A program made the position numbers and the translations under genes. From NCBI GenBank assembly GCA_023920165.1, contig CP089280.1:558001-622000 (forward strand): a DNA stretch of 64,000 nt, given 5' to 3'. This document shows, one piece after another, positions 1 through 30,517 of the stretch; position 1 is the first letter of the stretch, and each line of letters opens with the position of its first letter. Source of the stretch: Curvularia clavata (lineage: Eukaryota). The notes under the pieces are model-generated. The model was not told the DNA's origin. It searched no databases and saw nothing but the letters and a program-made list of their open reading frames with translations.

Positions 1-700
1 TATGCTTACTAACTTATATTTTTAATATTAGATCCCAACTACTAGCTTATCTCTATATAAAATACTAATCTTTATATTTCTAGCTATTTTATCAGCTGAG
101 TTATATTCAATCTAAAACTACTACTTTTTAGAGCACCTTTTTGTTATGAACCCCCACTATAATATTTATACATAGTATCTAATATATCTTATTTTTAGAG
201 TTTAGAATCTAAAATTCTATATTTATATCTTTACTTGGATAGTATCTTTCATTTCAACTTTCTAATTTCTAGTAGATTTAGAGGCGGTCTGCCGCTTATT
301 TATATCATATATATTTTAGGCCAATCACTATAGACGAGCTACTTATAGGAAATAAATATAGTCAAATTATATATATATATATATACTAGAAACTATAATT
401 ACTAAAATATTTAAGCGCGAAAAAGTCGCATTTATCTTACTTTTTTCTTTACTCTACCTTAATAATTTACTAAATTTTTTATCTACTGACTTAGGTAAAT
501 ATAAGAGTATAGTCTAAAACTACTAGCCAATCCCTATATAAAACACTAATCTTTACATTTATAGCTATTGCATTGGTTGAGTCATAGTAATTCTAAAACT
601 ACTACTGTTTCGAGTACTTTCTTTCTATGTCCACCCACTGTAAATAATCCGGCTCTACCCTAGTTTATATACTACATAATCTTGTCCTACCCTAATGTAT
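1..700. repeat. AT-rich, TpA-rich RIP-like degenerate tract containing a diverged direct repeat (37-163 vs 518-644)
   Basis: Very low GC, abundant TA dinucleotides and stops in all frames. Two ~125-bp segments align without gaps at offset 481 (shared AACTACTAGC, CTATATAAAA, ACTAATCTTTA, TCTAAAACTACTACT). Confidence 0.75.
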
Positions 701-1916
701 ATGCTAAGTAACCCAGCTCTACCCTTAACCTACTGCGGGTGCACCCAACCCATTTACCAGCCTACATTGGAATCGCCTCTTGTGTTATCTCTTTGCCAAG
801 CTCCATTCTGTTATCTCGACACTCATGCAGTTTATCAACATTTAGTCGGCATAAAATGTCTACATGAATCCATAGACTTAGGCACTCGCGAAATTGCTTT
901 TGGGCACGTCCATTTACTTGAGTACATGTCATAGGCAAGCCGAGTTTGCAATAAGAATAATGATATCGGTTTCTCGAACGCCAGGAGACCCAAGTCCAAA
1001 GCACCTTTTTCCTGTCACTACGAATTGATGCGACCCAAGCTCGAAAACTTTGGTTCAGATCGCTAGCCAGAGTCTTTACTATTGACTTCAAGCTATGCGT
1101 TTCGCACAAGCAGCTTTTTAAGCACCATCTCCAGCTTTTAAGTGGAGCAATAGAATTACTCGCTACTTCTAGAGACGAAGAGTTCGCTCGATTCGTCTCG
1201 GAAGCGCTCTTGCTTGAAGACGCTGGGCGAGATCCTTCTTCACGCAAGCATCAGCCATAATGCAGACAAGGGCAACCTCACTGTTGCCGCAGCGACAAAG
1301 CGTAAGCTGTTCTTGACGTTACTTACGAAGTGGAGTCCAACACTGCTAGGTTAAGCAGCTGAACGAACATCTGAGGCTCTGGAGGTCGTTTGTTATCAAG
1401 TTGCACATGCGCACCAAACGCACAACAGTCTCTATGCGATCAACTGAATGACTACCAAAGGCCGTCGGAATTTAAAGTTACAGATACGCCGCTAAATATA
1501 GTCGACAGCGGTTGCTTCACGGGGGGCCGAGGCGCAATCCAGATGTGGGCTGCGGCTAAGTCCCAGCTTGAAACCCCGCTACCCGTGCAGTAGGCTGACC
1601 GATCTTCCAGTGTCCCAGCCTCTCAACTGGTATTGGTCCGACGGGCGTAGCCTTGCGACTGCACGCAAGTAATAGGGGGCCTGATTATGTTCCTTCGGCG
1701 CGCTCGTAGCATGCACTACAATGTGAACCGTCAGCCTGGTCGACATCTTCTCGACTTTTCTCAAACCCTCGCTGCCACACTGGGAAAGACTCGTCGCCGT
1801 CATGCATCGAGCACCCACGAGGTACCGAAGAATTGACGAAAGAAATTCTAGAGAGTACGCTGACGACATCGAACTTTTGGGGCATAGGTGAGACGGCCAT
1901 CAAATTTGGCGTTGAG

Positions 1917-9151: not shown

Positions 9152-11111
9152 ATGCCGACACTCGACGTCAGTGAGCTCAACGTTGTTATCGCCATCTTGG
9201 GTACGTCACTAGTGCAACCATTCCAGTACGAAGTCGACTAACACTGCTCCAATATAGGCGCCTTCATTGTCTGCTATGGCTTCATTTCTATCAAGATTAA
9301 GCAGGTATGGTACCTCGGTGAAGCATGTAAGTCCATAAACATCATTCAGATATGTTCTCTCCTGGATCAACGTTTCACTTACAAATCTTAGTACCTGCCG
9401 TGATTATTGGTATTGTGCTGGGTCCAATAGCCGCCAAATTTCTCGATGCAGAGAAATGGGGCTCTGCTACTCAAGGGCAGCAGGAGGCTATCACGCTGGT
9501 AAATTCACGAACAGCATATCTCTACAGTAGACATGGCTAACATATATGCAGGGTATGTGTCGCGTAGTAATTGGCATCCAACTTGTCATCGCCGGCTTCC
9601 AGCTTCCCGCCAGATATGCACAGACTCGATGGAAGGAGATGGCGTTGTGTCTTCTTCCAATCATGACCATCATGTGGATTTGCACCAGTGTTTGTGTCCT
9701 GATCACAATCCCTAAAATCTCATTCTTAGCTGCACTTGTTATCGGGTCCTGCGTCACTTGCACAGATCCTATATTATCGCAGGCCGTAGCAAAAGGTCCC
9801 TTCGCCGACAAGTTTGTTCCTCGTGCACTACGAGAGATTATCTCATCAGAAGCTGGCGCCAATGATGGATTCGGTTTTCCCTTTCTTCTATTAGCAACCT
9901 ACTTGATCCGCCATGCCGATCTCGAGGGCGTCAAGTTTAAGGAAGGCCTCTCCGAGGGCACTACAGGGATCGCACATCGAACAATCGACATACTCACTAA
10001 GCGCAGTGAGGAGGGCGTTGGCCGTCTTGGTGGGGGTGTTCCTATGGCCATCGAACAATGGATTGTAGAGGGATGGTTGTACATCATCGTCATGTCCGTC
10101 GCCATTGGCGTGATCATTGGAGCTGCAAGCATGTTTGCCATAAAGTTTGGTCTTCGTAAAAAGTGGATAGACTCAGAGAGTCTTCTACTGTGGCCGATGG
10201 CTATTGGTCTCTTCATTCTCGGCATTTGCGGTGCACTCGGCACAGACGACCTCCTTGCCTGCTTCGTTGCTGGCAATGTCATGAACTGGAATGGTGTTTA
10301 TCTCGAAGAGACTGAGAAACGTCACGACGAGGTCAACAGCTGCTTTGATGTCATTCTCAACTTCGGTGGTTTCATGTACATCGGCACCATCATCCCTTGG
10401 AGGGAATTTCAGCTTCCAGATGTGACCGGTATTTCGATTGGAAGACTCATGATACTTGGTTTTCTAATCCTTGCTTTCCGGCGGATTCCAGCAATATTCA
10501 TGATGTACAAGGTCATGCCTAATGTTGTCAAGGACTGGAAAGAGGCACTGTTCATGGGATACTTTGGGCCCATTGGTAAAGAGAATCGAAACCAGCGGGA
10601 AATAAGTTACTGACTTTCCATAGGAATCGGTGCAGTTTTTTACGTCGAACACACACGTCACCTATTCCCAAAACCTGAAGAAGCCCAAACGGATGAGGAA
10701 GAAAACCTTGTTGCAGCCATGATACCTGTTGTTTACTTCCTTGTAATCTTCTCCATCGTCGTCCATGGCCTTTCTATCCCAGCTCTGGATGCCTTTTACC
10801 GCTACAAGAAGATTCCACCTATCCAAGAAGCTGAACCAGCAGAGATTCGCCCACTTTCTGTTTACGAAGCCCTACCCAACAACGCCCGTATGGACACCAA
10901 ACGGAACTCAGTTTTTGTGCACAATCGCTTCTCAAGGCCTGTTTCTACGGGCCCCGCTCCGCAGCTATACAGGTGGAACACCGAGTCTAGGGACAGCGAT
11001 GTGACATATAAGGTCGCGTCGCAACCAGAAAGCGTGGACTATGCAAAGCAGCTGGAAAATATCCGGTTTGCAGAGGATTATGCTCACGAGAAGGCTTATA
11101 TGGCCCGGTAA
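9152..11111 (+). CDS. Plasma-membrane Na+(K+)/H+ antiporter (CPA1 family, Nha1/Sod2-like), multi-exon
   Basis: ATG 9152 (MPTLDVSELN), first intron 9201-9257 and further introns. Motifs YLGEA, TDPILSQAV, SEAGANDGFGFP, GTDDLLACF, RRIP, FGPIG, SIVVHG. Confidence 0.9.
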
Positions 11112-12447: not shown

Positions 12448-14445
12448 TCACAATGATTTAAGTACACTGTCAAGCACTCCAGATCTTTTCACCCAACTTC
12501 GCGCCCGCTTCCCGTAAATATACATCGGTACTGTTGTTAATGTAACAGCAGCCGTGGTGCCTCCAATAACGTAAAATGCGTGCTTGACACCTTGCGCAGC
12601 GATCCAATCGTTTGCGTAGAAGGTGAGCCCGAATGCGAAAAGATTCTTGATAAAGTTCATGATGGCAAAAGCTTCCGCCGACTGCTCACGATGACAGTCT
12701 GTCACATAGGTCACTACCGCAGTAGTGCCAAGCTGAACACCAAGATTTATTATACCTAAGCAGACAATGACAGGAATAGGCCACGGGTCGGCATTAGAAA
12801 GGGATCTTCCCCATGCAAAGAAACCAGATGCGGTGAACATGAGGTATGATATCATGACGGGAAGACGAAATTCGGGTTCTAAATGTTTATAAGCAATCAT
12901 CACGAGAAGTCATAACCGGGAGTACCCACCGAATATGCCCTTGTTCCGCTTAGATATCAGCTTCGCGACACCGTCTATAATTGGTCCGGCTACCATAGTG
13001 GCTAACAAAGATGCGACGAATGAGGAGACATTCGTTGCGCCTACCTCACTGACCGAGAAGTTGTATGGAGGAGCTGAGAAAATCTGTGACAAAGTTATAG
13101 ATATTAGGACCAGCCAGGATATACATATCGTGAACAACAACGTTGCCCACAGAACGACTGGGCTTCCAATCATGACAAAAGGACGAATGAGTGTTCTCCA
13201 AAAGGATACCTTGTCCCAGTAGCCTGACCAGGGCATCAGGGTCATGATGAAAGGATGGCGCAGATCCGATGATGGAGTCCTCGATAGATGGCTGTCCTCG
13301 ATGCGCTCCACAGATTGGTTCGTATTTTTCTCCAGTGTTTTCACTGTATGAGCGCCTGTGTCAATATTCATAGTACTGTGTCGATGGAACGATGATTCTG
13401 GCATAAAGAAGATGACCAGAACGAGCATGATGACAAATGCTCCGCCCATAGCATGCAAAGCGATACGAAAAGAGCCGTATTGAATGATAGATCCCGCTGT
13501 TTTTGTTGATAAGCCGTTCGTTTGCTCGTGTAGGATTGCATACCTATTGGGCTCGCCAGATTCTGCTCACACTGTCAGTACTTCGTCTAGTAGAACATGT
13601 ATGGCAAACCTACAATACCACCAAGGACTCCAAGATTAAAAACAGCCATCCGAAACCCACGTTCATGTACGTGCCATATGTCTGCAATAGATGCTGGGAT
13701 CAATGCCTCGAAAGGAGCTGCTAGGTTTAAAAATCATGACCAGCGTAAGTGTTAATCTCTTAACCTACCCAAGCAGAAACCCTGAAGAGCTCTTGCAACA
13801 CAGAGCGAAGCAAAACTTCTCGACTCTGCGGCCCAAAAGCATGACACCGCTAAGCCGACTGTAGTGGCAAGGTAGATCGGCCGTTTCCCTACTTTGACTG
13901 CTAGAGTGTTGCAAATTAGACTTCCAACAGCAATAGCCAAGATGCAAAAACCATTGACACCTAGGGGAATCTTAGTCAGATAGAAGAGTCCCATCTTGTG
14001 GAAATGTGTTACCTAGAGTAAATCTTTGTAAACGAACATTCAGCTCTTGCGCCAAAGGCACGAACGCTGACGTCAAAAGAGGCCCAGCCGCTTTTATGGT
14101 CGAGGTCAACTTTGTATATTTGGATTGATTATCAACAGCTTACCTCCTACGCAACCACATCCATACGCAATCACAACCGTGAACTTCTCAATATTAGCCT
14201 TTCCTTTGTGCGCTCTATGAACAGCTGTGACATACCATCTCTTTCTGCCATCTTGGCCAATTATATGGATCGTTTGGTGAATCGGAGGGCTGTGGTACCA
14301 GTACGATTTGGCCAGTAACATCATGCTTCAGCAGCCCAGAGTTAATATCAGCTGCTATTTCCAGGTCCGTTCGGCCTAACTCGTGAAGTGGAGCTGTTCC
14401 CGGGACATGTTCGAGTTTGTAATCTTCCAAAATACCCAATGGCAT
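12448..14445 (-). CDS. MFS transporter (HOL1/DHA1-like), multi-exon
   Basis: MPLGILED..HVPGT start, LVPQPSDSPNDPYNWP, KVGKRPIYL, FFMPES, FSAPPYNFS, EPEFRL, YIYGKRARSW; about 12 hydrophobic segments across spliced ORF pieces. Confidence 0.88.
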
Positions 14446-14581
14446 GATCTGGCGATTGGTTATTGTAGTCAGGATAGCAATGCAAGTTTAACGATGAAAG
14501 AAGAACAGCGAAAGGTGACATTAACAGATATCTAGTAGGCAGGGGGAAAAACAAGATCCCACATCCACTAAAACGGCAGAG

Positions 14582-14723
14582 CCCCAGGTTTTGAGATGTG
14601 GGGTAGCACCATCGTGCGGCAGTTGTACAGGAGGCGGGGAACAATGGTGCACATACTTGCCGTGCGGGGGACGTGGATGCGGGGATCGACTTTCGTCTCT
14701 CCAATACATTAGCTTATCCCCGC
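14582..14723. promoter_or_regulatory. Cluster of six SYGGRG (CreA/Cre1/Mig1-type) sites upstream of the MFS gene
   Basis: CCCCAG 14582, GTGGGG 14598, GCGGGG at 14634, 14664 and 14679, CCCCGC 14718, all within ~140 bp and 140-280 bp upstream of the ATG at 14445. Confidence 0.55.
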
Positions 14724-15100
14724 TCTAGGGCACAAAGTCTCGGAGTCATACTACCGATACACTTATGGCTAAGAGGATCATGTAATCTGCATGTACAAGC
14801 ATGCTTTTTCACTCGAAAGAAGTACGATTCTTAATTTTATTGAGCACTTGTCCCGAAGATAGGAGAAGGACAGTGAGAGTGCACACGAGATATGTCTAAT
14901 CGGCGAGTAGGCACTACGATATTACTAAACCCCTCTTAACGATTAGGCGAGTGTCTTGCTTATGATACTAACCATTGGCATTCAAGGATAAGTAGGGGTA
15001 GAGTAAATCCTCTAAATGTCCCCTTGATCAAGCATGCATTCTGGTAACGCATCTATCCCCAAATTGAGGTTCGAAATCCATTCTTTCCTTATCTGTTTGA

Positions 15101-16347
15101 TCATATATTGTACATGCGTTCCAACTCGATGCACACTGCATCAGTGACCTCATTTGTTGAAGCATTGCCTCCAAGGTCGCGGGTCGCAACACCTCGCTCG
15201 GTTATTGTCTCTACGCTCTCCATGAGCTTTTTCGCTGCTTGTTCTTCTCCTAGCCATGCAAGCATTTCGCATGCCGTCCAGAAAGTTCCTACTGGATTTG
15301 CAATACCTTTGCCAGTGATGTCGAAAGCTGAGCCATGGATTGGTTCAAACATTGATGGGTTCCGACGGGTCGGATCAACTAAGGGTGGTCAGGGTTAATG
15401 AGCGGACTGGAAGCTTAAGAGATACTCACGGTTGCTAGTGGGCGCGATGCCAATCGAGCCTGCCAAGGCCGCTGCAAGATCAGAAAGAATATCCGCATGC
15501 TTTACCAATCAGCGATTGAACGGTCGAATCATCGAAGCGTCTACACCTACCAGGTTCGTCGCCACTATTGTATCCAATGACTTCGGGTCAAGGACCATCC
15601 TGCAGGTCATGGCATCGACAAGCATCTTATCACACTTGACGTCTGGAAAATCTCTCGCAACCTCTGACGCGATCTCATCCCACATCACCATTCCATTGCG
15701 CTGTGCATTACTCTTGGTAACAACTGTTATGTGCTTCCTTGGCCTCTTCTGTGCTGTCTCGAATGCGAAGCGCAGGAGACGCTCTACACCATGACGCGTA
15801 AAGATTGAAACTTCGGTGGCAATCTCCCATGGTTGTCCTCGATGCGATCTTCCTCCCTGACCTGCATATTCGCCTTCGGAGTTCTCGCGTACAATGACCC
15901 AATCTAGATCCCCATGTTCAGCTTTGCGCAACGGTGACGAAGTCCCGCGGAATATTTTGGTAGGCCTAACGTTTGCAAATTGCTGAAAGGTTTGACATAT
16001 AGCGAGCCGTAGACCCCATAGAGAGATATGATCTGGAACATCTGTAGGACTTTAGTTAGCTGCGTGCACATCAGTCAGATGTTCTACATACCAGGCGCAC
16101 CAACCGCTCCAAAAAGGATAGCGTCATATTTTTTGAGTTCCTCCAAGCCTCCATCAGGGATGTACTGTCCTGTCTTCTTGTACGTTTCGGAGCTCCAATC
16201 ATATTCTTTGAATTGCAACTCAAAGGTGCCATCCAGTTGCGCGAGCTTCTTCAAAACTTGCACACCAGCACCAATGACCTCGGGACCGATGCCGTCTGCA
16301 CCTATTGTTGCAATCTTGTGTATGCGCTTGGACTTGCTCGAAAACAT
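15101..16347 (-). CDS. Tartrate dehydrogenase/decarboxylase (isocitrate/isopropylmalate dehydrogenase family), multi-exon
   Basis: IATIGADGIGPEV, DAILFGAVG, VPDHISLWGLRL, IVRENSEGEYAGQGGRSH, VTKSNAQRNGMVMWD, DILSDLAAALAGSIG, MFEPIHGSAFDITGKGIANP are typical of TtuC/DmlA-type enzymes. Confidence 0.9.
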
Positions 16348-16605
16348 GGTCAAAGTGGGCAAGACTGTTTGCGGTATTGAAGTTTTGAGAAATGTGCGTC
16401 AGGGTTTTCGTATGAAAATGAGCTTGTACAAATGTCTTTATAGAAAATCTACTGCAAGCAAAGAATGGCCCTCATTCGATATTGTCATGAGCTGGCCACT
16501 CTTATGCAGGATCTGGCCCAAGTGCGGGGAACGCCGGAGTAAGAAAGCCCGGTTAGTTCTCAGGGATCCTCACGATGACAACTCGCCCAATTGAAGACTT
16601 ATTGT

Positions 16606-18631
16606 CTATTGTGGGAAATCCCAATGTTGCTCTTGTTCGAACCAAAACGGTATATCAAACCCCGAGAATGCATCTAAGCCGTTTGAGGTTCCTAGGGTTG
16701 CAAAATCATTGAGTCCAGCTGCCATGCATGCATCCCAATAGTTACTACCAAAGCTGAGATCTGGCCCCCTCTCTGCGGGAACCTCAGTAAGTTCTGGATT
16801 CGGGGTAGTGGTAATCGCTGATTCATTGCTTATTCCAAGAGGGGCTTCGTCCGAATATAGCGGATCATGTCGTGCAGAGGATTGCAGAAAGCCAGTATGA
16901 GGTAATTCGCTAAGCGCGACGTTGCCTATTTCACTACCCAGAGTGTCCCTGTTAGCAGTTTGCACTGGGCGGCCAGCCATGCGAGCTTGTAAGTCGCGTA
17001 TAGCAGCTGAGCTTGCCTCCGGCCATGTGCTTCCGCGCTTAGAAAGATGCCGAAGTATTTCCAAACTTTTGTTCGCTAACCTTGTGGTTGTAAGTCGCCA
17101 TACGAAGACATGTTTTGAGCATACCACCTACCTTGTAACAACGGCTTGAGAAGCGTGCCCTCCGTTGGCAGCAAAGAACATGATGAATGTGCTGATCCAC
17201 ACAGCCCACGTGCAAGAAGGCCACAGTAACATTAATGAACCAGATGCAGCTTTGAGATTAGAGTTGGGCTGTATAGTATGATGTAAACAAGAAATGATGC
17301 TTCGGGCTGAGTTAATGCACTGATGCAGGGATGCATCATACGCAGCGTCTTTGTGGGAGACTGCCAGGACAGGGCGATGGAAAGAGATGATCGACTCGTG
17401 TTTAAGCAAAGTCAGGATGGCTGTGGAATAAGGTGAAGCATCATGAGAGCCATCAGGGTCGATGTAATCCTCTACATCGTTCCACCATTGACTAAGCTCA
17501 GCTGTTATCGCCGTCGCTCGGTCAGGGTCGTTATGGACAAAATGTACGGATTTGTTACGTAGTTCTATGATTTCACCCCGGATTTTCGCCTGTTGAGCTA
17601 TGAGGTGCAGCAGGCGAAGGCGGCTATCTTTATATCGTTAGAGTAACATTGATTCAGATGTAATGAGACCCACCATGTTCCAACGAAGTTCGGATATGTT
17701 TTTCTGTAAGCGGAAAGCAAACATCAATGTCATTATCATGAAGCCCTAGAGGGAGACCCATGGACTGACTGAGAAAACGGTCCATTGCGTAAATCGTCCA
17801 GAAAATGCGTTGTCGAAGCTCTCTGTCTTCTGGAGCGAAGGCAGAAAAGCGAGCAGGGCATCGATGAAGGCCTAGTTGGACAGCCATACGCGTGATGAGC
17901 CCACCCAGACGTGAAGCAGCGTTCAAACGCAGCATGGATATAAGAAAGAGTTGCACACTCAGAGTGGCCTGTAGTGCAAGTAATGTTGTGGGCTGCGATA
18001 TTGAAGCCCAAATGCTATTCATAGCGGACTCGTACGTGGTGAAAACGAGAAAGGCAGGACATTGCACGTTTCCACGTCCATTTGATTGTCGGTGATCTGC
18101 AAGAGATATAGAAATAATTGCTCGGAGTATGACCAAGCGAAGATCTTGACGGGGCTTGTCTTCTGGAAAACCATTGCGTGCGAACTCGTCAAAATACTCT
18201 AGGATAGTTGGTGCATGGAGAAAAGGATAAAAAGGATGCCAGTTCGTGAAGTAGCTTGCTGAGAGGGCGACCATGTCTTCAAAAGCTATGTGACTTTGTG
18301 GAGTAGAGTTGATCTCGGCTACTCTCCAACATTGGTCAGATGAGTCGGGTTTCATTAAAGGCAGGTGGTCGTCTTCACCCGGTACGATTTCACTACCTGG
18401 TGTTTCTGCTGCAGCAGGGCTTCTTGGCTGAGAGCGATTGATGGCACCATATACTGATCTGATGAAGAATATACCACTGGCACTACCGACAAACCCTGTA
18501 AACCTGTCCGCAGGACTGCGCATCAGTCCGACTTCACGCGCCAGCCGTGGTGTAGTACGCTGTCGCTTTGCAGGTCGCCCGTTCTCTGCAAATAGCTGTG
18601 GAGAAGCATGCTTGTCATATTCCTGTTCCAT
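16606..18631 (-). CDS. Fungal-specific transcription factor domain (middle homology region) protein with no zinc cluster
   Basis: FVGSASGIFF, YFTNWHPFYPFLH, AVQLGLHRCP, RQRIFWTIYAMDRFLSQSMGLP, FHRP, two introns. No Cys6 motif in its own N-terminus. An alternative ATG lies at 18643. Confidence 0.85.
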
Positions 18632-18797
18632 GGCAGTAATCATGATGGATAACCTGACGAGAAGTTTGGTTGGAGATGACGATTTTCGGAAGAAGAAACC
18701 CCGCTTTGTTGCATGACTCAACAGCAATCAGATCTTTCGGACGGCCTGATTCAAACAACGCCTGATCCTAAGGACTGTTGGAAACGAGCAACCGCCA

Positions 18798-19464
18798 CTA
18801 GAAATAGTTTCGCAGCCATTGCCTTGAGCTTGTAGTATCAACCAAAGAGTTGGGAACAATTGGCTGATTGCATTCCTCCAAACGTTCGAGAACTGTTTGG
18901 GTTGACGCTGATGCGTGGGGTTGGGGTTCAGGTATCGATGCCCTGCAGTTTGTTTGAGGCACAGCTGCTGCCACGCTCTCGTCACTTCGCGCTCGAAGCC
19001 ACGCAAGCAGCTGAGTGTGTGTCTGCAACGGTAGCCGCTTCCAACTCGCCATCCTCTCTGCCTTTGAGATCTTTCGTGACTGTGAATGAGAGATTGCGTT
19101 CAGCGATAAGTCATCTATACGATGTTCTGCAACCTGATTTTGAAGGGCGATGAGAGTGGCTGAAAGTGCGATTTCCGTTGCTTCAAGTCGCTCCTCCAGC
19201 GCTTTCATATAAGCGGCAGGCAGTCCTCGTTTTCCACCCTCTTGGTAGTGACAATCTGTTAGAGTTGATCGGCATGGAGAGCAGGATGGACTGCGGCAGT
19301 TAGACTTGGTATACTGGTGCTTGTATGAGGTGCACTGACAGTTTTCGGTCGCATTTGCATTTCTTGATCCTGCAAGCTTCGCAAGCGATGGCGTTGAGTC
19401 GGTCCTGTAGAGATTGAGTCAGCGCGCAGCGCCAATGAACTCATGCGACAGTTTTCGATACCAT
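18798..19464 (-). CDS. Small Zn2Cys6 binuclear-cluster protein (~185 aa) with no regulatory domain
   Basis: Spliced model: ATG micro-exon 19464-19462, intron 19461-19405, intron 19339-19291. It reads MDRLNAIACEACRIKKCKCDRKLPSCSPCRSTLTDCHYQEGGKRGLPAAYMKALEERLEATE...WLRNYF*. Confidence 0.85.
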
Positions 19465-19855
19465 GAATAAGCTGTGAGTATTTGATTCAATGGGGCAGTT
19501 TTGGTTCTGCGTCGTGACCATGCACCAACAGGCACACAGCAGAAAAGTTAGGTACCTATTAGGGACTAGCTGGTTGCACCAGGAAACCACTTTCAGCCCA
19601 GTGTATGTTTTCCAGGCCCCTTGTTTCATGAATAACGACTCACCCCAAGACATGATCCAAACCTATGACATGGCTCATTTTTCATGCTTCGAGCTCCATT
19701 GCATCCGCAAATACACAAAAAACTCTAATCACTTAGTCCTTGTACTCCACTACGACATCGCGGCACAAAGCAAGTCTAGCCTTACAAGTCACCATTCCTC
19801 GTCACCATCGACCATTTAAAAGGTATCGCTCACTAGCCATTTCAGAGTTGCCTCG

Positions 19856-22800
19856 TCATGGCATCGAACTTTCCTTGTCTGGATGAAGAAACTTTGCACT
19901 ACTCGCTGCGGAGCTCGCGCGCGTTCGAATGACCCGCTCGCTTTTGGTTACCTCCATCCTCTGGTAGTTGTTCTCAATCAACCGGTAAGCGTGGCCATAG
20001 TCGCGCCATTGCATCTGAAATGCAATCAACATGACCGGCAAGACGCTTATCAACTCTCCCAAACCGGCCCATTGCGGCTTGATTCTGATCTGATTTCCTA
20101 CTGGGACGAAGGCACCAGCTGCAAGCAAGATTGCGGAAATGTTGTACAGGCCTGACCAGCTGAAATTAATGATCATGCGCCGATATGCAGCGCCAGAGAT
20201 ATCAAGTAAGATCAAGATGTCGTGAAGGCGGGTGGTCATAAAGACGATGTCAGCAGCGCTCTTCGCCACGTCCGAACCTTCACCAACATGTACTCCAATG
20301 TTCGCTTGTTTGAGCGCAACGGAGTCATTTGTGCCGTCACCTACAAACATGACAATTCTGCCCTGATCTTGAAGATCTTTGATGTATGTGCGCTTCTCAT
20401 CAGGTCTACAGCGCGACTTTGTGCAGTCCTCGTGAATGTGGAGAGCACCCGCATCTTCGTCCACAGCGCCTTCGGTGTCACCGCTGATCATATGTACCCG
20501 CACCTGGCGAGTATGCAGCTTCTCAATGACCATCTCGGCTCCAGGACGGATTTTATCCTTGAGCTCAAAACTAGCCTGAAGATCTCCTGCAATCGTGAAG
20601 TAGCATCTTGTATTGGTTTCTTGCCCAATTATATTGATCTTTAGCCAATCCGCATTCCCGGCACGTACTACGACTCCAGTCTTTACGCAAGTACCTTGAA
20701 CCCCTTTGCCAGGAAAGCTGACGATGTCGCTGACTTCTAGAGGGTCGTAGCTTTTGTTGAGGATCCTGTCATTTGCAAGATAGTGCACAATTGCTGCAGC
20801 AACAGGGTGCTTGATGTCTTTCAATAAACCCGTCATCAAGCCCTTGATGCGAGCTCTGTCCGTGCTGTGGTATCGCGGAACTCCTACAACCTCAAGCTTT
20901 CCACAAGTCAGTGTCCCGGTCTTGTGAAAGACTACGTCTGTGACTTTGTAGGCGTTTTCTAGTGTCTGAGGATCTCTGAGGATTATCCCATATCGTGCTG
21001 CCACGCCACTTGCAATGAGGACAACCATAGGCACGGCCAAACCAATAGCGCACGGACAAGAAACGACAAGAGTCGCTATGGTGTAAGTTGCTGATGTAAC
21101 GACCGCCATCCTCCAGGTGTGATGGTGACGAAGCCTCTCGACAAGTAGCCAGAAGACAAAGACCGCAGTCCCTATCATGGCGATTGCAGGCACGAACCAG
21201 CCAGCAACGCGATCTGCAAGGCCCTGAGCTTTCGGTTTACTCAATTCGGCATTTTCTACCAGAGTTGCAATCTGATTGACGGAGTTCTCATGAGGCAGTT
21301 TTCGCAAACCGACGACTAGCGAACCATCTTGGTTGTTGGTACCTGCAAGGACCACAGATGAAAGACCCTTGGCCTTGGGTTTGAATTCGCCAGTCAGCAT
21401 GCTCTCGTCAACATTGGAACCTCCATACAAGACGATTCCATCTGTAACGACCCTTGTATAAGGCGGCACGACGAAAACATCGCCGTATTGAAGAAGACGA
21501 GAGTCGATACGGGTGGTCTTAACGCTGGCCCAGGTGTCATTGGGTGACGGTAACACTAGAAGCGTCTCCTCAACCTGAAGAGACCGAAAAGATACCGACT
21601 TTGCAGCTTGGAAACGTGCAAATTCACTGAAGAGGCGACCCAATAGGATGAGCATTACCAACAAAGCCGATGTCTCGAACAAGGACCCTGATTGCAAGTG
21701 GATATCATGGACCTCAAGCACGTACGACACAACGCTGAAAGAGTACGCCATAGTGGTGCTTAGAGTAATCAAAAAGTCCATTTCCAAGACACGTGAGTGG
21801 CAGAGTGATCGCCAGGCATTCGGGACAAACTCAGCGAAAGCCACAATTTGAACCAGTGTTGCAAGAACCAAGGATGCATGGAGGTCAGCACTACGAGTTT
21901 GTTTGATCGGCGCCCAAGCAAACACAAGCACTGGTATTGTGCAGGCCAATGTCGGAAGGAATAACAACAAAGCTCGTCTTGTTTGCTTGGCTCCGAGTTC
22001 GATTCCAGGGTCTACCGTTGGAGGTGCTAGGCGAAGATCTGGATCGTATTGCAAAAACTGTTCGAACACATCACGGGCGCCTATCTTAGTTGGGTCGTAG
22101 TACACCTTTATTGAAGGTGCTTGAACTTTGGGAATCCCACGCGTTGGGTCCTTTCTATGATCCTCGGTGGTGTCATCATCGCTGGCAAATCCACATATTG
22201 TTGATCCAGTCGACTCTGTTAAAATTGTCTTATTGCATCGACTCAAGCTGTGGAATGGCCTCCATGGTGCTCTCTCAGGCACTTCCACGCGGAGGACGCC
22301 TTTTGGTCGACTAGCATGTGTCAGGCGCCGAGGTTCGGCGGTGAGGAGTTCTAACATCTGCCCATCAGACGCAACGTGCTCCTCAAGGTCGTACCCGGTT
22401 CTTTTAGTCAGCAATTTGATGACATCTTCAACACTGAGATGGTTGACATCTATGTCAAACTCGATTCGACCCAGAACGGCGTTCACGTTGTAGTTCCTGA
22501 TAGCAGCAATGCGTTCGAGGGCCTGCGAGAGCCCTCTTCCACAACACCCACACTTGAGCCCGTTGATTCGGAGGACTACACGCTCAAACCTGGGGGGTCC
22601 CTTTTCAGCATCATCATTGTCATTACCGATAGTCCTATCACCTGAGTACTTTGTCAATAAGTTTCACCTGGGCGATACAGCTCCATATAACAAACGCTAG
22701 ACCGAACAAAGGAAGAAGACGGACCATAGACCTAGGCCTTCCTTTGGACTCACATGTTGTTTTGACATTGACATTTTTCATTGGTGGAAGGTCATTAGTG

Positions 22801-23393: not shown

Positions 23394-24182
23394 GACGGTG
23401 AATTATGGCGGTAGTAATGGAAGATGGTGTCGATACTGATGTTCCGTGTGCAAAGGATATGTGGTACGGAAGCTGACTTAGATTTGCTATCGTGGTTTCA
23501 CAGACATAGGCAGTAGCAACAGCGCCTTTGGAGGACGGTCTCTACTGCACAAAATTCAGAGGGGTAAGGCTCGGCCATGCTCAAGACGCGCCTCCCGTAT
23601 TGATGGAATTCATCCCATGCCACATAATGACGTCTCACGGCTCCCAACGGGGATACGATTCGAGAAATAGCTGTTCTGTATCAGCAGCTAGCATCGTAGC
23701 GCTATTTTCACAAACAACAAGCTTGCTGGAACCTAGGATACATAGAAGGTCTATCGCTGGTGCCAGAAGTCTGGAGAGTATGAATACCATCTGTGAGGCC
23801 GACAGAAAGTGCCTTCTTCAAGCCATGCGCCGATGCATTGTCCGAAAGCTGCTACACAGTCAATGAGTCATCATGTTGCTTCTCATCGAATGGCTGTAAT
23901 GAGATTGGATGATGACTGTGATTTTGTGCAGTCGCATGGTCCAACAAGTCAGCCTTCGATTGCCAAGCATCAAGCACGTGACAGCGCGCCTTGCGTGCAT
24001 GTTGCGTCATTGCTGTCGCCTGCTTCATCTACTTACAACAACGCCTGGCTTTTGCAATGCCGGCCTCCTAGAACCCGCATGCCCGCCATGAAAATCGACG
24101 GGTTTCATCCCTGGAATCAGCAACGCATACCACAACTTGTCTGACGCCACAACTCACGCCTGTTCGATAGGTGACCGCAGAC

Positions 24183-27170
24183 ATGGCAGGCACTCGCACC
24201 AGACTACACAAGACAACTAAGCCAGCCATACCAAGGAGGTCGGCGCGGGGGGCACAGAAAACACAGCCCGAGGATGAGGTGCCGGCCGTGTTCAAGGACA
24301 TGCTGCGCGACGAGGAAGCATCCAAAGCCACCAGCGCCGACGAAGATGGTCCCCCGCCAAAGAAGAGAAAGACGGCGCCAACGCGGAAGAGTCCAAGTCC
24401 TACTGGACCTGCTTCGCCGGGATTATCGCATACGCGAGCGCAGTTCACAGCTGCAGTTCAATCCGCAGAAGATGCACATGAGAATACGAACGGCCGAGTA
24501 CGACAGACCATTATTGACTCAGACGAGTCGGAAGACAGCGACATGGAGTGGGAAGACGCGTTGGCCGACAGTAGCGACACTGATGATGCTGACGAGGGTG
24601 GAAATGCCACGCCGCAGATTGGGAACATATCCATTGCAATAGGCGCCAAAAAGACAGACGACGCTGGTACAAGGAGGAAAGCGCGTCGGCGAGCCATAAC
24701 CTCTGTCGACAAAAAGCGTCGTCTGGATATCCACAAAATGCACGTGCTCTGTTTACTTTACCATGTATACCGCCGAAACGCCTGGTGCAACGACAGAAGA
24801 GCTCAGAGCACCCTATGTAAAATGGTTCCTCCCAAAATTTTATCTAACCTTGTGCCAAACCCCGACTTGACACAATATTCTGCTTCGAAACAATTCATTG
24901 ACGGTATGAATGAAATTAAGATATTTTGGTCGAAGCGATTCAAGATCACTGCCCAGGGCATGTACAAGCCTCGGTGGGCTGAAGTCGACGCTGCCATTCG
25001 ACCCTTTTCTGACTTTGACGAACTTGACGGTCCCATGGATAAGGACGATTTTCGCACTGCGGCACACACATTGCAAGGGTCTCAAGATATTGGGACGCAG
25101 CTTTTCTGCGCCCTCCTTCGCGGGATTGGCGTTGAAACTCGCCTGGTTTGTTCTCTGCAGCCTCTGCCCTTTTCCTCTGCAGCCGAACGCGCAACTCCGC
25201 AAAAGACGAGTGTCCACCAAAATGCCATCGTCATTGACCCATACAACACGCCTGCAGAGCCAAGTCCCACAAAGTCTAGAACACAAGGCCCGCGATCTAA
25301 GAAACTGTCCAGATTAGAACGCATGATGGGTGAACGACATGCAGTCTTGAACCATACTGGGGTGGCCCCTAAAAAGCAGAAGGCATATCACACCCCATAC
25401 CCTGTATATTGGGTCGAAGTCTTGAATCCTGCTTACCAAAAGTGGATACCAATCGACACGCACTCTACATTCACTGTCAACTCACCAGAGAAATTAGAGC
25501 CACCCCTTAGCTTTACTGACAATATTTTAGCTTACGCAGTAGCATTTGAAGATGATCATACAGCAAAAGATGTTACTCGAAGGTATGCTAAAGCATACAA
25601 CGCCAAGACACGGAAATATCGCGTCGAGAGTACTACAGGAGGAGAAAAGTGGTGGCGACGAACCATGAATTTTTTTCGACGTGTGTCTCCTCTCGACAGA
25701 GACCAGATTGAAGATGCTACATTGGCACGCAAGGAGGCTTCTGAAGGCATACCGAAAAATGTCCAAGACTTCAAGGGTCATCCAATTTACGTACTCGAGC
25801 GGCACTTGAAACACAACGAAGTAATATACCCTCTCAACCAGGTCGGGAAGGTCAATTGCGGCACTGCCATGAACCCTAAAATGGAGCCGATCTATCGCCG
25901 CACCAATGTGCACGTGGTCAGAACTGCAGACAAATGGTACCGCATGGGGAGAGACGTGAAGTTTGGCGAGCAGCCGCTCAAGCGTGCGAAACCAAAGAAA
26001 GGACGGAGGTGCTCCATTGGTGCAGATATGGATGTTGAAGAGGAAGTAGACGAGGTTGGGGCTGGACTCTTCGCCGAGTTTCAAACCGAAATCTACGTTC
26101 CTCCTCCTGTTGTCCGAGGTCGAGTTCCACGTAATGTCTACGGTAACCTCGACCTGTACGTCCCATCCATGTGTCCAGCAGGGGGGACACACATTCGACA
26201 CAAGCTTGCATCTAAAGCAGCGCGTATTGTTGGTGTAGACTTTGCAGACGCTGTTACTGGCTTTTCCTTCAAGGGTCGACATGGCACTGCAGTTGTGCAA
26301 GGCGTCGTAGTTGCGCAAGAATATGCGGATGCCGTGCAAAGCGTCATTGATGGCATGATATACCAACAAGAGGAAGCAGAAACTGCAGCGCGCCGGGCCG
26401 AATCACTTCGGTTGTGGAGGCGCTTCTTCCTTGGTCTACGTATTGCACAACGCATCAACGCGATTGAGATTGATGGTGAAAAGGGCCCAGTCATCAATGT
26501 GCAAGACGAGATAACTAGAGAAGATCGTGAGCTGGCTGCCCAAGAAATGGCAGGAGGCTTCTTCCCTGACGAAGGCGATGTCGCCGAGCCCTCAGGCGGC
26601 GGCTACCAACCACCACATGAAGATCATGATGGGGGAGGCTTTATGCCAGACAGCTATGATGCTGGTGACGACGACGACGGTGGTGGTGGATTCATTCCGG
26701 AAGAGGAAGACGCAGCACCTATTGCTCTGAACCGACACCAAAGCTTTGAGAGCTCTATCCTCGACTCACAACAACTTCGACCTCCGCGTAGAAGCAGCTT
26801 CGGCCAAGTTTACTCATCAAAGGATGACGATGAAGGCGGAGGCTGGGTTCATGGCGACTTGGTAGAGGACGTTGAGCCTGCCTTTGCTGCCGAAGATGCC
26901 AAAGCAATATCCGCGCAAGTCGACGGCATTGTGGAAGAGGAGACCCAGTCGTTGAAGCCCAATGAATCTTCTGCTACAGACACTGAACAACAACGCAAGC
27001 CGGAAACCGAGAGAGGTGCGACGCCACCAGAACAGCCTACAGAGGATGTCTCGATGAAATCGCCGCCGGCTCAATTGCCCTCTTCATCGCCCTCGGACAC
27101 GGGGTCGCTGCTGTTGGAGGATCCTGAAGACGAGGATGCTGATCCTGATTGGCTGGTTGATGCTACTTGA
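24183..27170 (+). CDS. RAD4: Rad4/XPC nucleotide-excision-repair damage sensor
   Basis: IHKMHVLCLL, LFCALLRGIG.ETRLVCSLQPL, YWVEV, AKDVTRRYA, DFKGHPIYVLERHL, GRVPRNVYGNLDLY, ADAVTGFSFK, and the centrin-binding-like helix LWRRFFLGLRI. Confidence 0.95.
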   Translation: MAGTRTRLHKTTKPAIPRRSARGAQKTQPEDEVPAVFKDMLRDEEASKATSADEDGPPPKKRKTAPTRKSPSPTGPASPGLSHTRAQFTAAVQSAEDAHENTNGRVRQTIIDSDESEDSDMEWEDALADSSDTDDADEGGNATPQIGNISIAIGAKKTDDAGTRRKARRRAITSVDKKRRLDIHKMHVLCLLYHVYRRNAWCNDRRAQSTLCKMVPPKILSNLVPNPDLTQYSASKQFIDGMNEIKIFWSKRFKITAQGMYKPRWAEVDAAIRPFSDFDELDGPMDKDDFRTAAHTLQGSQDIGTQLFCALLRGIGVETRLVCSLQPLPFSSAAERATPQKTSVHQNAIVIDPYNTPAEPSPTKSRTQGPRSKKLSRLERMMGERHAVLNHTGVAPKKQKAYHTPYPVYWVEVLNPAYQKWIPIDTHSTFTVNSPEKLEPPLSFTDNILAYAVAFEDDHTAKDVTRRYAKAYNAKTRKYRVESTTGGEKWWRRTMNFFRRVSPLDRDQIEDATLARKEASEGIPKNVQDFKGHPIYVLERHLKHNEVIYPLNQVGKVNCGTAMNPKMEPIYRRTNVHVVRTADKWYRMGRDVKFGEQPLKRAKPKKGRRCSIGADMDVEEEVDEVGAGLFAEFQTEIYVPPPVVRGRVPRNVYGNLDLYVPSMCPAGGTHIRHKLASKAARIVGVDFADAVTGFSFKGRHGTAVVQGVVVAQEYADAVQSVIDGMIYQQEEAETAARRAESLRLWRRFFLGLRIAQRINAIEIDGEKGPVINVQDEITREDRELAAQEMAGGFFPDEGDVAEPSGGGYQPPHEDHDGGGFMPDSYDAGDDDDGGGGFIPEEEDAAPIALNRHQSFESSILDSQQLRPPRRSSFGQVYSSKDDDEGGGWVHGDLVEDVEPAFAAEDAKAISAQVDGIVEEETQSLKPNESSATDTEQQRKPETERGATPPEQPTEDVSMKSPPAQLPSSSPSDTGSLLLEDPEDEDADPDWLVDAT

Positions 27171-27633: not shown

Positions 27634-29174
27634 CTATTTCTTTTCCAACATATCATCCAGACCCTTGATGCCGCCCTCAAAGCCATCGAGATCATATTCC
27701 TTGGGATACCTCTGTAGGATATCTTTCAACTCCTCAGCATGAGCCCTCTGTTCCTCTGTCAGATTTTCCCAGACACCCTCAAACGCATTGCGAATGCTGG
27801 GTTTCTTTTCCTTCTCAGCCTCCTCGAATGCCTTGAGGACCTCTTTTCTTGTGGTGCTTCTCAGCGCCTTTTCCTTGTCCTCGTCCCACAATTGACGTCC
27901 TTCGAGCCACTTTCTTAATCGCGTAATGGGGTTATCGCGGCGTTTCCAGTCTTCGACTTCGACGCGCTGGCGGTAGGCAAATGAGTCGTCCGAGGTGCTG
28001 TGGTGGCCGACACGGTATGCCATCATTTCGATCAAGACGGGTTGGCCACCGTCTTGGAGGGCCAGGCGGCGTGCTTCGGCTGTGGCGCGGCGCACAGCGA
28101 AGATGTCGTTGCCATCTACGCGAAGGGTGGCAATGCCGTATCCTGCACCGCGAGATGCGATTCCGTCTCCCCGGTATTGGTCCGATGTGGGTGTGGAGAT
28201 GGCATAGCCGTTGTTGCGGCAGATGAAGATACAGGGAACTTGGCGGGTCGCGGCAATGTTGAGGGCTGCGTGGAAGTCTCCTTCACTAGCAGCGCCTTCG
28301 CCAAAGTAGCAGACTGCGACTCGTGGCTCTGTGTCTGGATTTTGAATGTTTTGCATCTTCAGCGCGTAGGCTGCACCGGCTGCGTGCGGTATTTGCGTTG
28401 CGAGGGTGGAGCTGATGGTATGTATGTTGAGTTCTTTGCTGCCATAGTGTACAGGCATGTTACGGCCCAAACCGTTGTCTTTGGAGTTTGCAAAAAGCTG
28501 GTTCATGAAGGATGAGAGTGTGAAACCACGTTGAAGGTATACGCCCGACTCGCGGTATTGACAGAAGATGACATCGGATGGGGAGAGAGCACTGGCGGAT
28601 CCGATGGAGATGCCTTCCTCGCCAGCAGAGACCTTGTCAAATCAGTGTGAAGTTCCATGAATATAGGTCTTGAAGTCTTACCATGTAAAATGACAATCTC
28701 CCTTGCCGTTGTGCTTCAAACATGAGAAGATCCATTATGCTCACTGTGACCGGTCAACCAAGCGTCCAAGAGCGGAGAACCATTTACCACTGACGCTTAA
28801 TCATATTCTTGTACAGTGTCAGAGCCTCTTCGTCTGAAGTCTCGACGCCAATTTCCTTGTCTATTATGTCGCCATACTGGTCCATGACGCGGTAAGTGGA
28901 GATCGCCTTGGCCTTGGATGGATGGATAAACTCCATGGTGTTTGTGAACTCGCTGTTCAAGGCACCAGGAAACAGTACTCTATAACGCCTTGTCAGCCTC
29001 CCCGTAATAGCCATTCCGAGACAAAACAGCTCACCTCTCAGCCGTGGGCGTGGAAGCAACACCCCGGCAGGCCTGCCAGGGCGTGTTTGTTGTCCTTGTG
29101 GACGCATTGGGACGGATCTGAGGGCTCAGCAGCCGCTGGAGTTGCAGCCTCCGCGAGGTGTAGCGGAAAGACAT
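27634..29174 (-). CDS. BCKDHA: Branched-chain 2-oxoacid dehydrogenase E1 alpha subunit, mitochondrial, multi-exon
   Basis: Presequence MSFRYTSRRLQLQR, QRQGRLSFYM, GRNMPVHYGS, YFGEGAASEGDFHAALN, RNNGYAISTP, YRVGHHSTSDDS. Confidence 0.93.
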
Positions 29175-29464: not shown

Positions 29465-30517
29465 ATGCATGCCCCCAGACAGCAGATGGGCCGCCAATTG
29501 CTGGCGAGCAGCAAGAGAAGGACAGTAGGAGAGTCGTATAGGTGTTTTTCTTGTTCCATCAGACAAGCCCGCCCGCAGCAGCAGTCGCCGCCACCTCCAC
29601 CGCCAAAGTCTCCGCAAGATGGATCACCGACGACGCACTTTGGCTTTGAGACGATTGCCGAGGCGCTGAAGGAGCAGCGAGGTAGGTCCAATGGCTCATG
29701 ACCGGTTACAAGAAGTCTCATGGCTAACAAGAGACGTCACACAGTCGGCGCAGTCTTCTCCTCAGTCGCATCGTCATACGACTCGATGAACGACTTCATG
29801 TCGCTAGGCATCCACCGACTATGGAAAGACCACTTTGTACGCAACCTGAACCCGGGACGGAACCCGCTCACCACGTCGTCGTCGTCACCCCAAGACCGCG
29901 GCATGAACATCCTTGATATCGCAGGTGGCACAGGCGACATTGCCTTCCGCATGCTGGACCACGCCTCGCACATCAACCACGACGCCCACACGCGCGTCAC
30001 CGTCGCCGACATCAACCCAGACATGCTGGCCGAGGGCAAAAAGCGCTCGCTGCAGACGCCGTATGCGCGCTCCCCGCGCCTCGACTTCATCGAAGCCAAC
30101 GCCGAGAATCTGCACATGATCCCCAGCGAGAGCGTCGACCTGTACACTGTGGCGTTTGGCATTCGCAACTTTACCCACAAGGATGTTGCGCTCAAGGAAG
30201 CATTCCGCGTGCTCAAGCCCGGCGGCGTGTTCGCCTGCCTCGAGTTTAGCAAGGTCCAGAACCCGCTGTTTGATGCCGTCTATCAGCATTGGAGCTTTGG
30301 TGCCATTCCCTTGATTGGCCAGTTGGTTGCGGGCGATAGGGATAGTTATCAGTACTTGGTGGAGAGCATTGCACGTTTCCCGAGCCAAGAGGAGTTTAGC
30401 AATATGATCAAGGACGCGGGCTTCCTGGTGCCTGGAAAGGGTTATGAAGACCTGACTAACGGTATTGCGGCTATCCACAAGGGTGTCAAGCCTGTTGCGG
30501 CTGCAAAGGGAGCGTAG
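29465..30517 (+). CDS. COQ5: 2-methoxy-6-polyprenyl-1,4-benzoquinol methylase (ubiquinone biosynthesis)
   Basis: TTHFGFETI, intron 29682-29744, VFSSVASSYDSMNDFMSLGIHRLWKD, LDIAGGTGDIAF, YTVAFGIRN, YQYLVESIARFP. Confidence 0.95.

Follow-up and report, generated by a model that had tools for sequence, protein, structure and literature searches.

Transcription factors that combine a Zn2Cys6 zinc cluster with a middle homology region (MHR) make up the largest class of fungal transcription factors. In Gal4, Ppr1, Put3, Leu3 and other members of the CeGAL family, these modules are carried by a single chain and follow one another in the order zinc cluster, linker and helix, MHR, acidic or aromatic C-terminus. 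The same modules in the same order are encoded in a 64,000-nucleotide (64-kb) stretch of the genome of Curvularia clavata (assembly GCA_023920165.1, contig CP089280.1, positions 558,001 to 622,000; the whole stretch is called the window below), but here a break in the chain parts the dimerisation region from the MHR, and this break is conserved across classes of Pezizomycotina. The two parts are open reading frames of their own, ORF1 for a small zinc-cluster protein and ORF2 for an MHR protein, and not the single polypeptide that characterizes CeGAL factors. In contrast to the single-chain type, the DNA-binding part has gained a C-terminal peptide with a free Tyr-Phe (YF) end, predicted to dock on the MHR, and the two parts may occupy opposite strands; shared with the single-chain type is the linkage to a catabolic gene that the regulator probably controls. 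Taking the evidence as a whole, we consider it probable that the pair represents a widespread split Gal4-type regulator, composed of two polypeptides from linked but separate genes.

Proteins that have only the middle homology domain (MHD) are generally viewed with suspicion. According to the available part of the CeGAL study, more than 90 per cent of approximately 17,000 MHD-only proteins were judged to be errors, a region coding for the DNA-binding domain being found within 1 kb upstream, and whether the MHD acts independently is left undecided there (PMC10141177). The available part of a study of Aspergillus niger describes FarD as an MHD-only protein that is genetically needed alongside FarA, a full-length Zn2Cys6-MHR factor, and that is confined to Eurotiales (PMC10512302). 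Compared by description, FarD resembles ORF2 in being a Fungal_trans protein without a DNA-binding domain that acts in the pathway of a zinc-cluster factor, and the ORF2 family likewise consists of conserved MHD-only proteins lacking such a domain. That part of the study mentions neither a small partner dedicated to FarD nor a docking peptide or a conserved linkage, and the corresponding part of a paper on A. nidulans transcription factors holds only an unrelated mis-fusion, AN9221, which joins alnG and alnR. A literature search that left aside the supplementary tables of the CeGAL study, where ORF2 orthologues may be listed as 'corrected', brought up no account of a split zinc-cluster/MHR pair or of its family.

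Adjacent genes for a DNA binder and for a partner without a DNA-binding domain, acting jointly on neighbouring genes, are exemplified by AflR/AflS and Tri6/Tri10 of secondary-metabolite clusters. To our knowledge, partners of the AflS and Tri10 type are not halves of one canonical architecture, and no conserved C-terminal docking peptide has been described for them. Polycistronic fungal transcripts have been reported mainly in Agaricomycetes and in a few ascomycete clusters. The locus resembles them in its same-strand ORFs, which lie 154 nt apart under continuous transcript contigs, but the pair also occurs in divergent and convergent arrangements and co-transcription is not its defining trait.

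Structure and transcripts of the two genes

All gene coordinates are those of the window and refer to its minus strand unless the plus strand is stated. ORF1 extends from 19464 to 18798 and, spliced in silico, encodes a product of 186 aa without internal stops, with the N-terminus MDRLNAIACEAC and the C-terminus QWLRNYF. A preliminary description of the locus, made from the sequence, had proposed a small gene with an ATG-only first exon, two introns, a complete Cys6 cluster and a stop after WLRNYF at 18798. This structure was confirmed, with intron 2 seen in transcript contigs and intron 1 deduced. Exon 1 (19462–19464) would consist of the start codon alone, which directly abuts the GTATCG donor of the 57-nt intron 1 (19405–19461; GTATCG...CTGAC...CAG, with a branch-like CTGAC). 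The joint across this intron does not appear in the contigs. Exon 2 (19340–19404), covered by contigs of four runs, encodes the first half of the zinc cluster. Intron 2 (19291–19339, 49 nt, GTCAGT...CTAAC...CAG) lies inside the cluster, and its joint 19290/19340 is present in runs X1, X3, X5 and X16. Exon 3 (18798–19290), recognized from the sequence and from homologues, includes the stop codon TAG at 18800–18798.

Three observations are consistent with the proposed ATG-only exon and intron 1. In the frame listing, the interval from the upstream stop to exon 2 offers no ATG in frame. The contigs of all four runs terminate at 19405, one G past exon 2, as expected if the assembly branches there between ...ATG|GACC and ...CAG|GACC, that is, between the spliced and the retained form of intron 1. 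Finally, the N-termini of ORF1 relatives read M(D/E)xLN(A/P)IACExC, and their usual spacing of eight residues ahead of the first Cys is the same in ORF1.

The Zn2Cys6 binuclear cluster, CEACRIKKCKCDRKLPSCSPCRSTLTDC, occupies residues 9–36 (19251–19383, split by intron 2). It was located in spliced ORF1 by a regular expression, and its cysteine spacing, C-x2-C-x6-C-x6-C-x2-C-x6-C, fits the Zn2Cys6 rule C-x2-C-x6-C-x5-12-C-x2-C-x6-8-C. When the unspliced exons were scanned separately against Pfam no zinc-cluster match was obtained, the cluster being interrupted by intron 2; in the orthologues P0124, P0133 and P0152 it is recognized above the PF00172 cut-off, with E=4e-9 to 5e-8. The cluster is followed by a conserved linker and putative dimerisation helix, GLPAAYMKALEERLEATEIALSATLIAL (19143–19226). 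In an alignment of 30 sequences its residues P24, E32, R34, L35, T38 and E39 (exon-3 numbering) are invariant, within the segment LE.RL..TE.AL, and the helix probably dimerises. A further conserved motif with no assigned function, SKAE..(E)WKRLPLQT..QL..W (18996–19067), has W83 and W97 invariant and K76, P87 and L88 nearly so in the same alignment. The C-terminal region, VLERLEECNQPIVPNSL...QWLRNYF-COOH (18801–18893), is conserved as L..C..P..PN...W..NYF up to the free carboxyl terminus; its predicted role in docking rests on this conservation and on the complex prediction described below.

A spacer of 154 nt (18644–18797), with stops in all three frames, separates ORF1 from ORF2. The downstream gene for an MHR protein without a zinc cluster, which the preliminary description had placed on the same strand, is thus confirmed. 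ORF2 runs from 18643 to 16606 and encodes 646 aa in three exons: exon 1 (17674–18643; sequence and alignment), exon 2 (17132–17627; contigs and sequence) and exon 3 (16606–17080; sequence and alignment). Its first ATG lies at 18643. The start that is conserved in the family is more likely to be the second Met (18631, context GCCATGG), 166 nt from the ORF1 stop. The only ATG of the spacer (18714) opens an upstream ORF (uORF) of 24 codons, whose TGA overlaps the first ORF2 ATG as ATGA. Intron 1 (17628–17673) has two acceptors 4 nt apart. The joint 17627/17674 in X3 gives the productive in-frame intron of 46 nt, which ends at 17628; X1, from the same study as X3, carries a 50-nt version that ends at 17624, shifts the frame and meets a stop after 8 codons. 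Intron 2 (17081–17131, 51 nt, GTAGGT..CACAAG) is spliced out in X1 and X3, with boundaries read from the sequence.

The Fungal_trans domain or MHR of ORF2, identified with Pfam, begins with SYFTNWHPFYPFLHAP and spans 17687–18256. Exon 1 scores 97.3 bits against PF04082 (cut-off 23; E=1e-27), and the Pfam scan of this exon found no zinc cluster. The protein also carries a basic KR-rich stretch, which is a putative nuclear localization signal, conserved N-terminal motifs, and an aromatic/acidic tail ending in FSGFDIPFWFEQEQHWDFPQ, which may be an activation domain. Profiles of both families, run over the whole window, detected one pair only, ORF1 and ORF2.

The two ORFs are in different frames. 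That of ORF2 opens only at 18727, past the ORF1 stop, and translation beyond the ORF1 TAG by read-through would reach the next stop after 9 codons. As the preliminary description had noted, no good donor would fuse them: there is no canonical GT donor before the stop that spares the conserved tail. A fusion would need an intron of length 1 mod 3 with its acceptor within the open frame of ORF2, starting from a weak GTTGAT at 18842, which would delete the conserved tail, and the corresponding joint is absent from the contigs.

Transcription was followed in four runs from three studies, used as Logan contigs placed on 15000–20200; that the runs are RNA is a guessed label ('RNA?'). The contigs lack GT-AG introns at seven joints over six introns (three of the neighbouring dehydrogenase gene, two of ORF2 and intron 2 of ORF1), as expected of cDNA. 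Intron 2 of ORF1 is spliced out in all four runs, and all four cross the ORF1 stop and the full spacer with zero joints and zero indels, coverage being unbroken over 17674–19290 in X1 and X3, 17933–19290 in X5 and 18088–19290 in X16. No splice joins the two ORFs in the dominant transcripts, so the splicing of zinc-cluster exons to ORF2, which the preliminary description had named as one outcome that would speak against a split, was not observed. The contigs differ from the window by single-nucleotide polymorphisms (SNPs) only, with no indel or nonsense change and one amino-acid change in ORF1; the break between the ORFs is therefore not peculiar to one assembly. In X1 and X3, a single spliced contig of approximately 4.1 kb spans ORF1, ORF2 and the entire dehydrogenase gene, which could be due either to read-through transcription or to overlapping untranslated regions merged by the assembler. 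Since these contigs extend into the next gene, the continuity between ORF1 and ORF2 is not proof of one molecule. Logan contigs leave transcript starts, ends, strand and minor isoforms unread.

Relatives and linkage in other fungi

A search for ORF2 relatives among longer proteins gave 172 matches at E<=1e-20. The best 120 of these 172 carry PF04082 only, with PF00172 in none of them, and measure 587–822 aa. They span Dothideomycetes, Eurotiomycetes, Leotiomycetes and Sordariomycetes and come from Pleosporales, Aureobasidium, Cladophialophora, Aspergillus section Nigri, Botrytis, Fusarium, Colletotrichum and others. ORF2 is 59–69% identical to its orthologues from end to end, the C-terminus included, with 69% identity to the Bipolaris oryzae homologue. 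An alignment of 24 homologues has a common start Met 20–30 residues ahead of a KRRR-like stretch, after which come RE(V/I)GLMR and FVGS(A/S)SGI(H/F)FIRSVY.

The C-terminal end of the small protein is conserved in its family. A word search among proteins of similar length returned 23 matches of 136–245 aa, all of which end in W-x-x-N-Y-F and carry L..C..P..PN upstream. A profile built from 30 members and scanned over 1.84 billion representatives gave 638 matches at E<=0.001, 341 at E<=1e-10 and 50 at E<=1e-30. The best 150 relatives are 124–499 aa long (median 217), and their chains end in YF in 127 cases, in FF in 8 (together 135 of 150) and in YY in 4. The stop position and the tail are conserved down to 22–39% identity, as anticipated in the preliminary description, which had named a conserved stop after the W..YF terminus as a test of the split. 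Named members of the family come from many Pleosporales, Aureobasidium, Bisporella (Leotiomycetes) and Pseudomassariella (Xylariales). The protein atlas yielded nothing more specific than generic small Zn(2)-C6 clusters from Ascomycota. The sole relative of 499 aa, P0150 of Paraphoma chrysanthemicola, is a mis-fusion of the small protein with an upstream alpha/beta-hydrolase.

When ORF1 was searched among longer proteins, the only match was P0001, an 822-aa model from Neocucurbitaria sp. that aligns with ORF1 over residues 19–170 and with ORF2 from residue 164. It has neither the first half of the zinc cluster nor the conserved ORF1 tail, and its junction falls exactly at the start Met of the MHR protein. 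This fusion looks like a bridge introduced by the gene predictor, that is, an artefact. Fused orthologues with a break unique to this assembly, the other outcome that would have contradicted the preliminary description, were thus not encountered among the listed homologues.

Linkage was analysed in 80 metagenome loci, which were fetched by MHR alignment and scanned in all stop-to-stop frames with both profiles. Grouping at >=97% nucleotide identity reduces them to 60 groups, of which 36 include 1 kb or more of sequence ahead of the MHR gene. A small zinc gene is linked to the MHR gene in 21 of these 36 groups, in tandem upstream in 13, divergently in 5 and convergently downstream in 3; the conserved adjacency expected in the preliminary description thus holds for these groups and fails for the 15 others, where no adjacent small gene was found. 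The two genes lie on opposite strands in 8 of the 21 linked groups, and the divergent and convergent arrangements imply two separate genes, which cannot be one. Tandem gaps, from the ORF end to the MHR match, range from 182 to 1076 nt. The frame of the linked small gene ends directly in YF or FF in 18 of 21 cases, the exceptions being L035, which is cut by a contig end, L041/42, with HYYF plus four residues, and L043, with an earlier frame end. The first half of the zinc cluster has a separate exon in 13 of the 14 loci tested. In each of five annotated genomes, the contigs that carry the small and the MHR protein are equal in length. Upstream of the MHR gene of locus L034, the opposite strand carries a second, weak Fungal_trans-like match (526–822, minus strand).

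Predicted complex, candidate regulatory element and neighbouring genes

The two-subunit regulator proposed in the preliminary description, a DNA-binding module and a regulatory module on separate proteins that would jointly control the adjacent acid-catabolism genes, finds support in the conserved stop, in the separate genes and in a predicted docking of the two chains. The complex was predicted with ESMFold2 from the MHR chain P0002 (Bipolaris oryzae, 643 aa) and the small chain P0124 (B. maydis, 187 aa). The three runs scored 0.70, 0.63 and 0.73 (median 0.70), and the best of three controls scored 0.00. When the tool was calibrated, 51 of 78 solved complexes attained the mark, as did 2 of 108 mismatched pairs, and 7 of 44 neighbouring genes drawn blind passed the test. 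The pLDDT of the partner is at least 58, and the runs share at least 28% of contacts. The confident interface on P0124 comprises residues 157–158, 160–161, 163–165, 167–173, 182 and 184–187, which correspond to the conserved L..C..P..PN stretch, the Trp and the terminal ENYF. On P0002 it covers 117–148 (SYF.NWHP.YPFLHAP.VL), 176–183 (SISLAD.RQ) and three further patches, and takes in F128, P136, L144, D179 and Q182, all invariant in 44 sequences. The model supports docking of the ORF1 tail on the most conserved N-terminal helices of the MHR, the binding itself being a prediction.

P0002 scores 93.1 bits against PF04082, and its AlphaFold2 model has an all-helical core, with a mean pLDDT per 10-residue block mostly >84 over residues ~100–530. 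A sequence search of the PDB with the MHR profile gave no match at E<=0.01. The top ten Foldseek matches of the model to the PDB are all Cep3/CBF3 chains (TM 0.41–0.53, best E=1.1e-3), a weak but consistent result. Cep3 of yeast CBF3 (2QUQ, 2VEQ, 6GYP) is the best solved match, with E=1e-3 to 1e-2, TM 0.41–0.54 and ~12% identity. Unlike ORF2, it includes a zinc cluster in its single chain and serves at the kinetochore, and the likeness shows the MHR fold of ORF2 and nothing more.

A candidate binding site was recognized at two places in the window. An element of the form CGG-N11-CCG, which we take to be the spacing of Gal4 sites, occurs in the spacer 44 nt upstream of the ORF2 ATG (CGGGGTTTCTTCTTCCG, 18687–18703) and again, with a T-rich core, ~190 nt upstream of the dehydrogenase ATG (CGGGCTTTCTTACTCCG, 16535–16551). 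No third match occurs in the window, for which 0.16 matches would be expected and 2 of 100 shuffles give as many as two. Both matches are on the gene strand and stand where the proposed regulator would require them. The element of the dehydrogenase promoter recurs in the equivalent intergenic regions of L002, L006, L008, L010, L016, L032, L070 and L073. The spacers of L002, L007, L016 and L070 hold it as well, and these sites were not used in deriving the pattern. In distant divergent loci, N12 variants with the same core lie between the two genes. A conserved element in the spacer points to a promoter of ORF2 itself, and it could be the binding site of the small subunit in an auto-regulated ORF2 promoter.

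A plausible scenario can be built from these predictions. Subunit A, the ORF1 product, would consist of the Zn2Cys6 cluster, the linker and dimerising helix, a variable spacer and the C-terminal docking peptide. Subunit B, the ORF2 product, lacks a DNA-binding domain and comprises the putative nuclear localization signal, the N-terminal motifs, the MHR and the aromatic/acidic C-terminus. A dimer of A would bind CGG-N11-CCG at the dehydrogenase promoter and in the spacer upstream of ORF2; the tail of A would insert into the first MHR helices of B and bring B to the DNA, where B would contribute signal sensing and activation. With the element before its own gene, B may be auto-regulated.

The likely target is a tartrate-dehydrogenase-like gene of the Iso_dh family (PF00180; 15101–16347, the low end approximate), which has three introns in the contigs and begins 258 nt downstream of ORF2. 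TIGR02089, the tartrate dehydrogenase family, is the best NCBIfam match for three of its exon pieces (251.9, 90.9 and 119.4 bits); their scores sum to ~462 against a cut-off of 470.4, a fourth short exon lying outside this simple sum. The gene adjoins the MHR gene in 31 of the 80 loci, in all three locus groups. Beyond it lies a gene resembling a major facilitator superfamily (MFS) transporter (12451–14713, approximate; MFS_1 E=1e-5, under the cut-off), which is possibly co-regulated and whose synteny is kept in L002 only. Upstream of the pair, a heavy-metal P-type ATPase gene recognized by its domains (E1-E2_ATPase, HMA, HMA_PCA1; 19859–22663) has its stop ~390 nt ahead of the ORF1 ATG and retains synteny in L002/L003 (60% identity). 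Other neighbours encode a Na+/H+ exchanger (9531–10610, plus strand), a Rad4/XPC homologue (24171–27167, plus), a dehydrogenase E1 component (27637–28641, minus) and a COQ5/UbiE methyltransferase (29702–30514, plus), none of which is conserved beside the pair in the metagenome loci.

Alternative explanations and significance

The split of this regulator into two genes is almost certainly real and old. Were ORF1 and ORF2 a single ordinary Zn2Cys6-MHR gene, joined by an unseen intron, by read-through or by a frameshift, the zinc-less models would be annotation errors, in line with the fused model P0001 and with the proportion of errors, above 90 per cent, and the DNA-binding region less than 1 kb upstream reported in the available part of the CeGAL study (PMC10141177). 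This is very improbable, given the absence of any joint across 18644–18800 in four runs that splice other introns, the different frames with an ORF2 frame that opens past the ORF1 stop, and the stop met 9 codons into any read-through. Moreover, conservation within the tail is highest in the residues that run up to the stop, and P0001 is without these residues and has its junction exactly at the MHR start Met. In 8 of 21 linked groups the genes are on opposite strands, and none of the 150 best small relatives exceeds 499 aa. Recent decay, in which a nonsense or frameshift change broke a fused gene and left ORF1, ORF2 or both as pseudogenes, has nothing specific in its favour beyond the default suspicion that attaches to a stop between two domains usually found in one chain. 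It is hardly credible in view of a stop and tail conserved to 22–39% identity, the 59–69% identity of ORF2 to its orthologues over the whole length, C-terminus included, the other isolates with SNPs and no indel or nonsense change, and the transcript contigs over both ORFs.

Two further explanations accept two genes. In tandem lineages, ORF1 and ORF2 could share one dicistronic mRNA, a possibility raised in the preliminary description. Translation of ORF2 would then depend on re-initiation or on leaky scanning, in which the uORF might take part, an arrangement compatible with a split regulator. The contigs of all four runs are continuous from ORF1 to ORF2, the spacer is just 154 nt long and the 24-codon uORF (ATG 18714) ends in ATGA at the ORF2 start; on the other hand, the X1 and X3 contigs also traverse the next gene, co-transcription is impossible for divergent and convergent loci, tandem gaps vary between 182 and 1076 nt, and the conserved CGG-N11-CCG in the spacer is what would be expected of an ORF2 promoter. 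Re-initiation past an ORF of 186 codons is, moreover, generally inefficient in eukaryotes, and we regard a dicistron as improbable. It is also unlikely, if deserving of attention, that the two proteins form no heteromer, the small one acting on its own (say, as a repressor or a competitor at CGG sites that consists of a DNA-binding domain only), the MHR protein working with another DNA binder, and the linkage reflecting co-regulation. The genetic requirement for FarD together with full-length FarA in A. niger, as given in the available part of that report (PMC10512302), would fit this arrangement, as would the 15 of 36 groups without an adjacent small gene and the 7 of 44 blindly drawn neighbours that pass the complex test. 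Against it stand the score of 0.70 versus 0.00, with an interface formed by the family-defining tail of A and invariant residues of B, the free di-aromatic C-terminus kept in 135 of 150 relatives, which calls for a binding pocket, and a linkage that survives rearrangements of orientation.

Several observations weigh against a split regulator of the kind proposed here. One annotated protein, P0001, does unite both parts in one chain, and a minor spliced isoform could be hidden in the transcript data, because contigs drop rare variants and the runs are RNA by guess. The strain SNPs of ORF2, 6 synonymous and 5 non-synonymous, are too sparse for a test of selection and are uninformative. The 15 unlinked groups show no remnant of a small gene even in an unfiltered hidden Markov model search at E<=10, several of them having little downstream flank; nine form one clade (~48% identity) in which the dehydrogenase gene lies divergently upstream of the MHR gene. 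L010, the nearest locus by its dehydrogenase (90% identity), also has no small gene upstream of the MHR gene. The docking is a prediction, made without alignments, with a partner pLDDT of 58–64 and chains from two Bipolaris species. As to the element, its 26 matches in the window and all loci, against 2.6 in block shuffles (maximum 7 of 30), represent a partly circular enrichment, since the pattern was derived from some of the sites that it counts. It is absent from the spacers of L009, L011, L012, L014 and L028, and no element of the refined CGG-N11-CCG type lies ahead of the MFS gene or of ORF1. Finally, the literature search found no experiments on any member of the family.

Some of these loci have features of their own. 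The nine-group clade (L019, L022, L023, L024, L025, L026, L030, L076 and L079) is Aureobasidium-like by protein matches. It has no small zinc gene within the flanks, and its shared intergenic region carries CGG-N12-CCG elements. Aureobasidium genomes do contain members of the small family (P0202, P0249 cluster). In L010 (1–1900), an unrelated ORF (327–1127) occupies the position upstream of the MHR gene, which suggests that the partner was lost or moved.

With the split itself hardly in doubt, a regulator formed by the two proteins through contact between the tail of A and the MHR of B seems to us probable. Control of the dehydrogenase gene and of ORF2 by the pair through CGG-N11-CCG is also favoured, with somewhat less assurance; the element, like the docking, is a computational prediction, and binding of A to it, sensing and activation by B, and the extent of the regulon are proposals built on these predictions. 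The chances appear evenly balanced that the pair typifies a large and old family of obligate two-subunit Gal4-type regulators across Pezizomycotina, in which the small subunit, present as hundreds of 50%-identity clusters, docks by its tail on the MHR and the MHR gene is under CGG-N11-CCG.

The recurrence of the pair in many fungi indicates that zinc-less regulators are not in every case annotation errors and that some of them are real. The locus is thus a conserved counter-example to the view that MHD-only proteins are overwhelmingly errors. A region coding for a DNA-binding domain lies within 1 kb upstream of ORF2, and pipelines that track such errors would 'repair' the tandem pair into one gene, which calls for caution in the automated correction of gene models. 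The pair also offers a candidate regulator, site and target for acid catabolism of the tartrate/D-malate type in many ascomycetes, and it presents the two modules already separated by nature, with a short docking peptide that lends itself to testing. If a family of obligate two-subunit regulators does exist, a true fraction of MHD-only and very short Zn2Cys6 proteins would be halves of split factors, and the contact between tail and MHR would reveal how the poorly understood MHR is coupled to DNA binding in single-chain factors.

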